The position numbers and the translations under genes were made by a program. Below, in pieces: positions 8,049 to 11,143 of a DNA stretch of 11,226 nt. The notes under the pieces are model-generated. The model searched no databases, was not told the DNA's origin, and saw only the letters and a list, made by a program, of their open reading frames with translations. Positions within the stretch are counted from its first letter, which is position 1. Each line of letters opens with the position of its first letter. This DNA is from a virus. The DNA is taken from UHGV virus genome UHGV-1656500; one strand, written 5' to 3'.

Positions 8049-8429
8049 ATGTTCAATCAAGATAAATACCTTTCGGTCAGATGGCTGAAGGGCGGTCGCG
8101 CTTACCCTGAACTTGACTGTTTCGGCATTGTGAATGAGGTGCGTCGCGATCTGGGGCTTCATGAGTGGCCGGATTTCGCCGGAGTGACGAAAGATAGTGG
8201 AGGGCTTAATCGAGAAGCGAGGAAACTGATGCTTTCCCTACAACGCTGCGAGCCATGTGAAGGTGCGGGTGTTGCCTGCTATTCAGGCTCAACTGTTACG
8301 CATGTCGGCGTTGTCGTGGTGCTTAATGGCCGTCTGCATGTGGCCGAATGCAACCCTAAATCCAACGTTTCTTTTACGCCGGTGGCGCAGTTTGTTCGCC
8401 GCTTCGTTAAAGTGGAGTTCTGGAAGTGA
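8049..8429 (+). CDS. Tail-tip assembly protein with an NlpC/P60-like papain-fold domain (gpK-like, single domain)
   Basis: ATG at 8049 with GGAGG 4 nt upstream. 126 aa. Candidate catalytic residues in NlpC/P60 order and spacing: Cys24 (ELDCFGIV), His85 (VTHVGVVV), His97 (LHVAEC). Confidence 0.55.
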   Translation: MFNQDKYLSVRWLKGGRAYPELDCFGIVNEVRRDLGLHEWPDFAGVTKDSGGLNREARKLMLSLQRCEPCEGAGVACYSGSTVTHVGVVVVLNGRLHVAECNPKSNVSFTPVAQFVRRFVKVEFWK

Positions 8430-11143
8430 CCATCAGAATTTATCCTTCCCGGTTACCCGGCGAGCCGCTGGAAACGCATGAACATGGTGCGGTGACTATT
8501 CATCAGTGGATGGCGCGGAATGTTGAAAATTACCGCGCTGACATGAAGCATCCGATCGCCATTGAAGTGGACGGCGTGAATATCCCGGCTGCTGCATGGT
8601 TTGATTATGCGATCAGCCCGAAAAGTGATGTGCACATTTATCCGGTCCCTCATGGCGCCGTTGCGCTGGCGTGGATTGCCGTTGCTGTTTCGGTCGCATC
8701 TGTTGCTTATGCGCTGTTCTTTGCGCCTGGCGCATCAGATCTCGGTGGTTTCTCTTCGTCGACAGGCGATTCACTGGACGTTAACCCGGCAAAAGCGAAC
8801 CGTGCAAAGCTGGGTGATCCAATTCGCGAGTTGTTCGGACGCCGCCGAATTTACCCCGATTACGTAGTGCAACCGGTAACCCGCTTCAGCCCGGACGATC
8901 CGACAGTGATGACCGTTGAAATGTTCGTTGCTCTGGGATTCGGACAATTTTCATTCGGCGAAGGGGATATGCGCGTCGGCGCCACGCCCGTTTCATCGCT
9001 TGGTGATGGTTTCGCATACACCGTTTTTCAGCCGGGCCAGAATGTGGCTGGTGATCGCCGTAGTGAAAACTGGTTTAACTCTACCGAGGTTGGCGGGACG
9101 TCATCGGGTGCCGGGCTGGATATGGCCCAGACCGCACCGGATACGGATGATGTGGTAGCGCAGTCACTGACGGTGTCGGGAAGCACAATCACGTTTAACG
9201 GATTAAGCGCTGATGATGATACTGCAACAAACGAGCTGCCTGATTCGTGGATTGCTGGCGCAACGGTTGAGCTAATCGTACCCGATCAGTTTGTTGTTAC
9301 CAATGATGGCGCATACAGCAGCATTACCAGTGACAATCTGGCGGAAATAGCCCCTTACGTCGGAATGCCGGTAACGCTCTGGTACAACAGCGTCGACTAC
9401 AGTCTGTTTATCGCTTCGTATACGCCGCATGCAGACGCGACAGAGGAAGAAGAGGAAGTCACCGCGTCGATAACGCTGGCTTATGAGAGTGAAACCGGCG
9501 CGCCTTTTACGGGTATTCCTGAGGGGTATATCAGGCTTTCCGTTTCTCACGCTGGGTATCAGTACAAAATTTTCGATGTGGACGGCACCAGTGTAACTCT
9601 TCAACGCTTGATTGATGGTGTTGTCGATAACACATGGCCGGGTTTCGTGGCGCACACCGTGCTTGATTTTGAGGCATCTGGCGTTAACCAGAATGACTCC
9701 TGGATGGGACCATTTCTGGCATGCCCGGATAATGAAACCATAGACATGTTTGAAGTGAATTTCTTCTTCCCGAATGGAATTTGCGGGTACGACAAAAAAG
9801 GGAGAAAACAAAACAGAACGGTTCGCTGGGAAGTTCAGTACCGTGTCTATGGCTCTGGTTCTGGCTGGATGAGCAAAACCGGTTCGTATAACACAAAAAA
9901 TATTAATGGCCTTGGTTTCACTGAGCGCATCACGCTGAGTTCTCCCGGACTTGTTGAAGTGCGGTGCCGACGCACTAACGAACAGGGGCAGGATAACAGT
10001 CGCGATAATATGTACTGGCAATCATTGCGTGGCCGCCTACTGACCAGACCGTCATCGTATGCTGGCGTAACAACGATGGGGGTCACGGTGGAAACCGGTG
10101 GCAAGCTGGCAGCGCAGTCCGATCGCCGGGTGAACGTGGTAGCTACAAGGATTTACGACACTGGCGCGGCGCGCAGCATCTCCGGCGCGCTGTACCACGT
10201 TGGTAACTCGCTTGGGCTGGACATGGACACCGACGCCATTAATGCGCTGGAAAGTACCTACTGGACGCCTGACAATGAGTTTTTCGACTTCGAGACGACC
10301 GAAAGCACATCTGCGCTGGAGGTTTTGCAGAAGATCGCCAACGCCGGGAAAAGCTATTTTCTGCTTGCAGACGGGCTTGCCTCGGTTGCGCGCGAAGGCG
10401 TTAAGCCCTGGTCGGGGGTTATCAGTCCGCATGAGATGACCGAAGACCTGCAAACCGCGTTCGTGGCTCCGTCTGACGACGACTATGACGGCGTGGACGT
10501 TACGTATATCAACGGCACCACCTGGGCGGAGGAAACGGTACAGTGCCGGATACCGGGAAATCCAACGCCCGTAAAAATCGAAGACTACACGCTTGACGGT
10601 GTGCTCGACCGTGACCGGGCATATCAGATCGGCATGCGGCGGCTGATGAAGTACCTACAGCAACGGCTGACACATACGACCTCAACAGAACTGGACGCAC
10701 TTTGCTATAACGTCGGCGATCGTATCGTGCTGACCGACGACATACCGGGCAGCCAGACAGTCAGCGCGCTGATTGAAGAGATAGATACCACTGATAACAA
10801 GACAACGTTTACGGTGACGGAGCCTCTTGACTGGTCTTTCGAGAACCCTCGCGTGCTGATACGTTACCAGGATGGCACCGCTTCTGGCCTGATGACGGCA
10901 ACGAGAATGGGGGATTATCAGGTGCTGGTTCCTGAACAAGCAGAGTTCAGCTCTATCATTCTCAATGATCCGTCTATCGAACCGCCGCGCCTGATTTTCT
11001 GCGATTCTTCACGCACAGGTTATGACGCTATCGTCTCAGAGATAGCACCACAATCAGACGGCACATGCCAGATAACTGCGAAGCAGTATAAACCCAACTT
11101 CTACGATTACGACAATGCCACTTATCCCGGCAATGTAGGATGA
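8426..11143 (+). CDS. Large tail-tip protein (905 aa): gpI-like N-terminal module fused to a gpJ-like tail-tip module
   Basis: GTG at 8426 overlaps the upstream stop (GTGA), with GGAG about 9 nt upstream. One uninterrupted ORF. N-terminal ~200 aa recall lambda gpI (VHIYPVPHG then the hydrophobic stretch AVALAWIAVAVSVASVAYALFFAPGA, and GDMRVGATPVSS). Later segments recall the N-terminal half of gpJ (YWQSLRGRLLTRPSSY; RAYQIGMRRLMKYLQQ...GDRIVLTDD). Confidence 0.65.
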   Translation: MTIRIYPSRLPGEPLETHEHGAVTIHQWMARNVENYRADMKHPIAIEVDGVNIPAAAWFDYAISPKSDVHIYPVPHGAVALAWIAVAVSVASVAYALFFAPGASDLGGFSSSTGDSLDVNPAKANRAKLGDPIRELFGRRRIYPDYVVQPVTRFSPDDPTVMTVEMFVALGFGQFSFGEGDMRVGATPVSSLGDGFAYTVFQPGQNVAGDRRSENWFNSTEVGGTSSGAGLDMAQTAPDTDDVVAQSLTVSGSTITFNGLSADDDTATNELPDSWIAGATVELIVPDQFVVTNDGAYSSITSDNLAEIAPYVGMPVTLWYNSVDYSLFIASYTPHADATEEEEEVTASITLAYESETGAPFTGIPEGYIRLSVSHAGYQYKIFDVDGTSVTLQRLIDGVVDNTWPGFVAHTVLDFEASGVNQNDSWMGPFLACPDNETIDMFEVNFFFPNGICGYDKKGRKQNRTVRWEVQYRVYGSGSGWMSKTGSYNTKNINGLGFTERITLSSPGLVEVRCRRTNEQGQDNSRDNMYWQSLRGRLLTRPSSYAGVTTMGVTVETGGKLAAQSDRRVNVVATRIYDTGAARSISGALYHVGNSLGLDMDTDAINALESTYWTPDNEFFDFETTESTSALEVLQKIANAGKSYFLLADGLASVAREGVKPWSGVISPHEMTEDLQTAFVAPSDDDYDGVDVTYINGTTWAEETVQCRIPGNPTPVKIEDYTLDGVLDRDRAYQIGMRRLMKYLQQRLTHTTSTELDALCYNVGDRIVLTDDIPGSQTVSALIEEIDTTDNKTTFTVTEPLDWSFENPRVLIRYQDGTASGLMTATRMGDYQVLVPEQAEFSSIILNDPSIEPPRLIFCDSSRTGYDAIVSEIAPQSDGTCQITAKQYKPNFYDYDNATYPGNVG

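Follow-up and report, generated by a model that had tools for sequence, protein, structure and literature searches.

A 905-residue prophage tail-tip protein that probably joins a gpI-like module and the tip-forming half of gpJ in one chain

The 11,226-nucleotide (nt) stretch of virus genome UHGV-1656500 analyzed here (the window) is a siphovirus tail module, and its last complete gene is an open reading frame (ORF) of 905 amino acids (aa) that we refer to as the hub (Table 1). Its closest relatives are found in Citrobacter and other Enterobacteriaceae. In phage lambda, I and J are two genes and gpI is a separate protein of ~200 aa, whereas the hub is one chain throughout its family. An initial annotation had read this ORF as a gpI-like start running without a stop into the tail-tip-forming half of gpJ, and had left it between a genuine alternative architecture and an accidental fusion through loss of a stop/start junction. 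The single 905-aa frame is present in the ORF listing at the position it had given, on the + strand and with a GTG start. The GTG and the TGA stop of the 126-aa ORF upstream run into each other as GTGA (a 4-nt overlap), a joint typical of translational coupling, and the start MTIRIYPSRL is common to the hub and its relatives.

Table 1. Genes of the window and segments of the hub protein, with positions in the window.
Feature	Hub residues	Position (nt)	Strand	Match or remark
Tail tube		1785-2705		
Tail assembly chaperone		2712-3233		
Tape measure, two ORFs		3593-5728 plus 5671-6459		
154-aa protein, distal-tail-protein (gpM) position		6459-6923	+	PHROG 384; conserved 154-155-aa gene after the tape measure in all relatives
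DUF1833 protein, 166 aa		6908-7408	+	PF08875, E 5.6e-35; PHROG 396 'minor tail protein'
DUF4823 lipoprotein		7467-7979		
126-aa protein, gpK position		8049-8429	+	PHROG 329 'minor tail protein', E 5.7e-13
905-aa hub ORF	1-905	8426-11143	+	
ThiS/MoaD/ubiquitin-like beta-grasp, counterpart of the gpI (TAPI) N-terminus	1-77	8426-8656	+	
One hydrophobic, membrane-spanning-like helix, putative counterpart of gpI H1/H2	78-100	8657-8725	+	
Gly/Ser-rich flexible linker, gpI plug and linker by position	101-124	8726-8797	+	aligns to gpI 154-180
gpI C-terminal strand motif (N-x3-L-G-D-P-I-R-E-L-F-G-R-R-R-I-Y-P-D-Y)	125-153	8798-8884	+	
Start of gpJ-like hub, equivalent of gpJ ~15-75	154-215	8885-9070	+	includes GDMRVG, 179-184
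Family-specific beta-rich insertion	216-435	9071-9730	+	no gpJ counterpart at this position
FNIII-A domain of gpJ	436-535	9731-10030	+	PF24801, E 5.2e-12, 46.5 bits (cut-off 27)
gpJ-like hub domains and stop codon	536-905	10031-11143	+	end at about gpJ residue 604
Phage-tail_3	627-784	10304-10777	+	PF13550, 26.7 bits (cut-off 23)
Next gene, first 13 codons		11186-11226	+	relatives encode tail fibre/spike proteins here

The larger part of the chain corresponds to the region of gpJ that forms the tail tip. The NCBIfam model NF040662 (TipJ-related) scored 460 bits over residues 436-894 (cut-off 140), and the two Pfam domains within this range stand in the same order as in lambda gpJ, where FNIII-A lies at 86-207 and Phage-tail_3 at 330-498. 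An AlphaFold2 (AF2) model of the whole hub built from 48 sequences reached a mean predicted local distance difference test score (pLDDT) of 83.5. Foldseek searches of the PDB returned gp14 of phage Sf11 (9occ_E, E 1.3e-45, template modelling score (TM) 0.67), lambda gpJ (8k35_A, 2.9e-25; 8xcg_J, 9.8e-25; 8iyk_F, 2.0e-22) and T1 (2.8e-22), followed by T5 pb3 (4e-8), JBD30, GTA and Chi. When the full family was aligned with hhalign to the single gpJ sequence, the result was reliable from query residue ~440 onwards, and the alignment stopped at gpJ residue 604, directly before the first immunoglobulin (Ig) domain of gpJ at 610. Pfam found none of the Ig, fibre and receptor-binding domains of gpJ (PF24421, PF24489, PF09327, PF12421) in the hub. 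The gpJ-like part is thus the tip-forming half of gpJ alone, stopping where the gpJ fibre begins, and on this point these data bear out the earlier description. The proposal that receptor binding resides on a separate polypeptide also fits: the hub ends at the start of the gpJ fibre, and relatives encode a tailspike or fibre next.

Between the start of the gpJ-like part and the FNIII-A domain, the hub carries a 220-aa insertion relative to gpJ. AF2 modeled this segment as beta-rich domains with pLDDT ~80-90, and it includes a run of five glutamates (E340-E344, window 9443-9457). Relatives of 1015-1020 aa have an extra domain of ~110 aa after residue 338, where the hub has the five-Glu run, and the insertion looks like a variable decoration or docking region. 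Pfam returned no match for residues 1-230 or for 231-435, even at E <= 10. The hhalign comparison also laid gpJ 23-80 on query residues 304-380, at zero confidence; we dropped this placement in favor of the PHROG 31 coordinate mapping described below.

The first 153 residues were read against lambda gpI. In a separate AF2 model of residues 1-79 (pLDDT 90.7), the chain folds in the order strand-strand-helix-strand-strand-strand; the top six PDB matches in Foldseek were ThiS (probability 0.98-1.0, TM 0.56-0.67), and all 50 listed matches were beta-grasp proteins, including ubiquitin, Urm1 and MoaD. The Pfam ThiS model was matched by 7 of 25 family members (best E 2.6e-4). The domain ends in P75-x-G77, with P75 invariant and G77 nearly so; hhalign pairs the domain with gpI 16-96 and aligns G77 with the invariant gpI G96. 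Residues 79-97, with a Kyte-Doolittle mean of 2.21, are the sole strongly hydrophobic segment in the hub protein, and AF2 placed a helix at 80-98 with low confidence. The linker that follows contains an invariant glycine (G114). Residues 125-153 form the most conserved stretch of the protein, where identity is 89% among the enterobacterial members and 53% to those of Pseudomonas type, compared with ~30% elsewhere, and by sequence they align with the gpI strand-motif pattern N-x4-G-x-x-[LIV]-P-x-x-Y-G-x-x-R-[VI]. Within this stretch, hhalign pairs hub NRAKLGDPIRELFGRRRIYPDYVVQPV with gpI NMVAQGNVLPVLYGEMRVGSRVVSQEI.

Profile comparisons tied these elements to gpI. A deep hhalign of 153 family N-termini against 18 gpI sequences (lambda-like, T1 and 25vf) made residues 2-151 collinear with lambda gpI 16-207 (local E 7.4e-5, probability 62%), and a shallow alignment (E 0.014) had already given the identical C-terminal pairing. 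PHROG 32 is the gpI family, which lambda gpI itself matches at 4.5e-83; it was weakly matched by 4 of the 25 members (E 3.4e-4 to 6.8e-4, residues 51-105), the hub doing so over residues 58-105 at E 6.8e-4. PHROG 31 ('central tail fiber J') was matched at its positions 129-315 by 20 of the 25 family N-termini (best 2.4e-11) and at positions 132-276 by the gpI proteins of lambda, T1 and 25vf (3.5e-8 to 1.9e-6), such that this profile bridges the N-terminal module of the hub and gpI at the level of sequence. Moreover, the order K-like, I-like, J-like is that of lambda. The gpI-like start proposed in the initial annotation thus held up on the beta-grasp fold and the alignment to gpI, with one hydrophobic helix after the beta-grasp where gpI has two.

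The same coordinates locate the joint between the two modules. On PHROG 31, gpJ 1-150 maps to positions 263-411 and hub 35-191 to 129-315, while hub residue 153 falls at position 276, which is gpI 209; because these positions are shared, hub 154-191 is equivalent to gpJ ~15-53. The gpI motif NMVAQGNVLPVLYGEMRVGS pairs with hub NRAKLGDPIRELFGRRRIYP (125-144), in which FGRRRIYP (137-144) is the equivalent of gpI YGEMRVG, and this pairing, together with the profile mapping, places the joint at residues ~153/154, that is, at nt ~8885. It had been put earlier at 9000-9100, with GDMRVG as the gpI motif, and neither assignment stands: GDMRVG lies in the gpJ-like N-terminus, opposite ...LKSVLLNSTPV at gpJ ~43-49, and does not correspond to gpI GEMRVG. 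Compared with lambda, ~14 residues of the gpI C-terminus and ~14 of the gpJ N-terminus are missing at the joint.

The single-chain layout is the conserved state of this family. PHROG 469 ('tail protein') spans the whole hub, pairing residues 1-903 with 2-902 of its 903 positions (E 3.6e-279). An Escherichia coli prophage with 72% nt identity has an ORF of identical length, 905 aa, named 'host specificity factor TipJ family phage tail protein' in RefSeq, with DUF1833 and 126-aa genes upstream and a tail fibre/spike gene downstream. A tblastn search with the hub hit 267 phage records, 101 of which cover at least 80% of the protein; in the Pseudomonas phages JBD44, PAJU2 and PS-1, matches of this coverage have identities as low as 28-32%, and JBD44 encodes a 909-aa hub protein in the same gene order. 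Hub ORFs of the same length also occur in Klebsiella phages. A megablast of the region against the phage collection gave no match. In protein databases, two clades yielded 751 and 524 homologues, nearly all of ~885-910 or ~1015-1020 aa. A profile search with residues 1-205 matched 1936 clusters at 50% identity, 588 of them at E <= 1e-10. Among the best 150 of the 1936 matches, which are those we inspected, the long, complete members carry the module at the N-terminus of an 800-1370-aa protein; stand-alone gpI proteins might sit in the weak tail of the search. Short matches of 124-350 aa proved to have adapter-like or frameshifted tails or to run into contig ends, and we rejected them as natural stand-alone genes. 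Across codons 125-215, 14 synonymous changes and 1 non-synonymous change separate the hub from its 93%-identical relative L005, and by this measure the I/J joint is under purifying selection.

Database records for several hub homologues (P0010, P0015, P0070, P0200; phage H4, H7) bear the names 'kinase', 'nitrite transporter' or 'sulfur carrier protein ThiS', the last given to one family member by JGI. These look like propagated misannotations, the ThiS label arising from the N-terminal beta-grasp.

The fused gpI-gpJ architecture is already known from the literature, PHROGs and NCBIfam, and the structure of a relative was solved in 2025. Lambda tail assembly protein I was recognized in 2006 to contain a ubiquitin-like domain, gpI having originally been found through ThiS/MoaD searches, and TAPI-TAPJ fusions adjoining NlpC/P60 genes that lack a JAB domain were described at the same time by Iyer, Burroughs and Aravind (PMC1779556). 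Our locus shares with these prophage fusions TAPI joined to TAPJ, a JAB-less, putative NlpC/P60 neighbour and a small beta-rich operon protein; the hub was matched to this family by description, not sequence by sequence. Cryo-electron microscopy of lambda has since established gpI as a virion component in three copies whose N-terminal domain is unresolved (PMC11101478, PMC10721106, PMC12617516). In these structures, gpI has two hydrophobic helices and a plug that closes the lumen beneath the tape measure's C-terminal end, and its C-terminal strands augment gpJ sheets and remain bound in the open state; the role that we assign to helices H1 and H2 is taken from PMC11101478. The order beta-grasp, hydrophobic segment, linker, strand motif, hub domains is shared between the hub and lambda gpI plus gpJ 1-~600 (8IYK, 8K35, 8XCG), the hydrophobic segment being one poorly conserved helix in the hub and two helices in gpI. 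Unlike gpJ, the hub is without Ig, fibre and receptor-binding domains, and, while lambda K has a JAB domain, the K-like partner of the hub does not.

The closest structural counterpart is gp14 of Shigella phage Sf11, 'baseplate hub 2 protein', modeled as one chain over residues 81-827 (PDB 9OCC chain E); it is present in three copies per virion, and its first 80 residues are invisible in the map (PMC12724387). Like the hub, gp14 consists of the N-terminal module (profile E 9.6e-15, residues 5-191) followed by the hub region; the family profile was needed to recover 9OCC, since single-sequence phmmer against the PDB returned nothing. The two proteins are ~19-25% identical, and the variable insertion differs in size, given that gp14 has 828 aa against 905. 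Sf11 also has a 156-aa hub protein 1 (BH1P) and separate tailspikes (PMC12724387), and its distal tail protein is 457 aa long and has a spike adaptor, compared with the 154-aa protein of the window. Neither gpI nor ubiquitin nor a plug is mentioned in the Sf11 paper (PMC12724387). The hub of phage Chi (8VJH) belongs to the same type as gp14. In T5, pb3 has been proposed to equal gpL plus gpI plus gpJ's N-terminal region (PMC10721106), and pb3 (7ZHJ, 7ZQP) is likewise a single-chain hub with its own plug. The plug of pb3 is an insertion in HDII, whereas that of the hub is an N-terminal module; pb3 includes the gpL-equivalent HDI, for which the window has the separate DUF1833 protein; and, unlike the hub, pb3 is without a beta-grasp.

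Together, these data make it very probable that the hub is a siphovirus prophage tail-tip protein in which one chain combines gpI with the N-terminal, cone-forming half of gpJ. By analogy with what the lambda and Sf11 structures show, three copies of the 905-aa chain would together form the closed tail-tip cone, with the gpI-like strands 125-153 packed on the hub and the helix and linker (78-124) plugging the lumen. Opening of the tip at the cell surface would free the helix to enter the outer membrane. The beta-grasp (1-77) would probably act as an assembly or solubility module and may be removed, and receptor binding would be carried by separate tailspike or fibre proteins encoded downstream. 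A covalent fusion is structurally unproblematic, since gpI and gpJ are 1:1 in lambda and the gpI C-terminus is permanently attached to gpJ.

Several observations weigh against this assignment. The hub has a single hydrophobic helix where gpI has two, and this helix is poorly conserved, with 9% identity to the Pseudomonas-type clade, in which a lysine is present; AF2 pLDDT is below 50 over residues 78-122. Profile-profile support is moderate at a probability of 62%, and the shallow alignment (25 against 16 sequences) reached just E 0.014 with a probability of 3%. Pfam PF06805 (Lambda_tail_I), which scores lambda gpI at 100 bits, gave no match to the hub even at E <= 10. BLASTP of the hub against lambda gpI and gpJ was not significant, yielding fragments, though collinear ones, and a gpI profile searched against the PDB recovered the lambda, T1 and 25vf gpI proteins and not Sf11 gp14. 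The lumenal position of the plug and its insertion into the membrane are drawn by analogy. Finally, the tape measure gene of this prophage is broken, and this particular copy of the hub may never be assembled.

Some of these observations could instead indicate that the N-terminal module is not homologous to gpI and that a ThiS-like beta-grasp and a membrane helix were acquired independently and converged on the same layout. The missing PF06805 match, the 62% probability and the lone helix would all suit convergence, as would the fact that the best matches of the beta-grasp, in sequence as in fold, are to ThiS and not to gpI. Against convergence, no solved gpI structure includes the N-terminal domain, so that Foldseek could not have matched it, and gpI itself first came to light in searches with ThiS/MoaD (PMC1779556). 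Three successive elements (beta-grasp, hydrophobic segment and the N..G.P...[YF]G..R[IV] motif) are collinear with gpI, PHROG 31 and PHROG 32 link both families, and the module stands between K-like and J-like parts as in lambda, so that we consider convergence very unlikely. Even less credible, to the point of being barely conceivable, is that the single ORF arose as an artefact or by a recent accident in which the I/J stop/start was lost through mutation or sequencing error. Lambda does have separate I and J genes, and the tape measure gene in the window does carry one real frameshift lesion; however, hundreds of clusters, from Enterobacteriaceae to Pseudomonas, have as a rule an uninterrupted ORF of ~885-1020 aa, changes across the joint in the 93% relative are nearly all synonymous, the short 'stand-alone' matches are contig fragments or adapter/frameshift artefacts, and Sf11 gp14 was modeled as one chain. 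The family-wide uninterrupted frame refutes the accidental fusion entertained in the initial annotation and supports its other option, a genuine alternative architecture.

How the ubiquitin-like domain ends up is a separate question. It was proposed in 2006 that peptidase domains of gpK, JAB in particular, release the ubiquitin-like domain of gpI (PMC1779556). By extension of this proposal, the fusion might be a precursor that is cut near G77 by the adjacent papain-fold peptidase or a host protease, leaving the mature virion with a gpI-C/J chain that is without the domain. The conserved P75 and G77 at the end of the beta-grasp, the alignment of G77 with gpI G96 and the translational coupling to an upstream gene that is weakly papain-like would all be in keeping with cleavage, as would the invisibility of both Sf11 gp14 1-80 and the gpI N-terminal domain in virion maps. 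Flexibility explains the invisible density equally well, though, and the JAB domain, the proposed processing enzyme, is absent here; processing is therefore possible, but we do not favor it over a hub that retains the domain. In bacterial Bil defence, central tail fibres of the gpJ-like kind are conjugated with a ubiquitin-like protein (bioRxiv 10.1101/2023.09.04.556158), and we note that the hub family has a ubiquitin-like domain of its own in cis and no JAB or deubiquitinase (DUB) domain. It is an unlikely, speculative idea that this cis domain might be a removable tag, cleaved after G77 by the co-translated papain-fold protein in place of JAB and thereby licensing hub assembly, or that it might shield the hub from host Bil-type systems.

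The genes around the hub belong to the same tail module. The 126-aa protein in the gpK position is probably a papain-fold peptidase, NlpC/P60 or CHAP-like, although this remains putative: its Pfam match to CHAP is sub-threshold (0.027), as are the NlpC/P60 matches in relatives (0.09-0.2). Homologues in Pseudomonas phages carry the annotation peptidoglycan hydrolase, and the E. coli homologue is a hypothetical protein in RefSeq. A possible catalytic cysteine lies in ELDCFGIV and a possible histidine in THVGVV. Pfam found no JAB/MPN domain in this protein, whose length leaves no room for one. The DUF1833 protein is, by position, the counterpart of the small baseplate hub protein 1 and gpL's N-terminal domain, and its gene order is the same in relatives L001, L003, L004 and L005; phmmer searches of this protein and the 126-aa protein against the PDB returned nothing meaningful. 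After the chaperone ORF, two ORFs at 3323-3553 and 3375-3665 are without a family match; these are candidates for the usual G/GT-type frameshift extension of the tail assembly chaperone and may represent it.

The window also bears traces of damage and exchange. The tape measure is split into overlapping ORFs of 711 and 262 aa, whereas L005 has one 885-aa gene; compared with L005, 13 bp (GCAGGCGCAGGAA) are missing between 5676 and 5677 and the frame is shifted, so that either the prophage is defective or the assembly is in error at this point. Between the DUF1833 gene and the 126-aa gene, a moron occupies 7409-8039. Its lipoprotein gene (with a MKRFLLVSAVILLAGC lipobox) might encode a superinfection-exclusion lipoprotein, for which it is a candidate; the moron has a GC content of 0.42 against ~0.54 around it and its own intrinsic terminator at 8001-8022, and it is absent from relatives L001, L004 and L005. 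At the other end, nt identity to the 93% relatives ceases at 11131, which is 12 nt short of the hub stop codon, and the next gene (MAVQLKDVVLHEV...) differs from the Tail_spike_N gene of those relatives: 11131-11226 is a mosaic joint at which the receptor-binding module has been exchanged. Only 13 codons of this gene, from 11186, fall within the window; by analogy with relatives it presumably encodes a separate fibre or tailspike, the product of which is not visible here.

The practical value of these findings is small. They do show that residues 1-435 of a very common prophage protein go unannotated by the present Pfam and NCBIfam models. The role of the ubiquitin-like domain of gpI has been a question since 2006, and the hub family could help to answer it, since cleavage would be easily detected on a 100-kDa hub chain. 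As a natural 'Rosetta stone', the fused form is evidence for gpI being an integral component of the tail-tip hub in a 1:1 ratio, and it sets the I/J joint between gpI ~209 and gpJ ~15.

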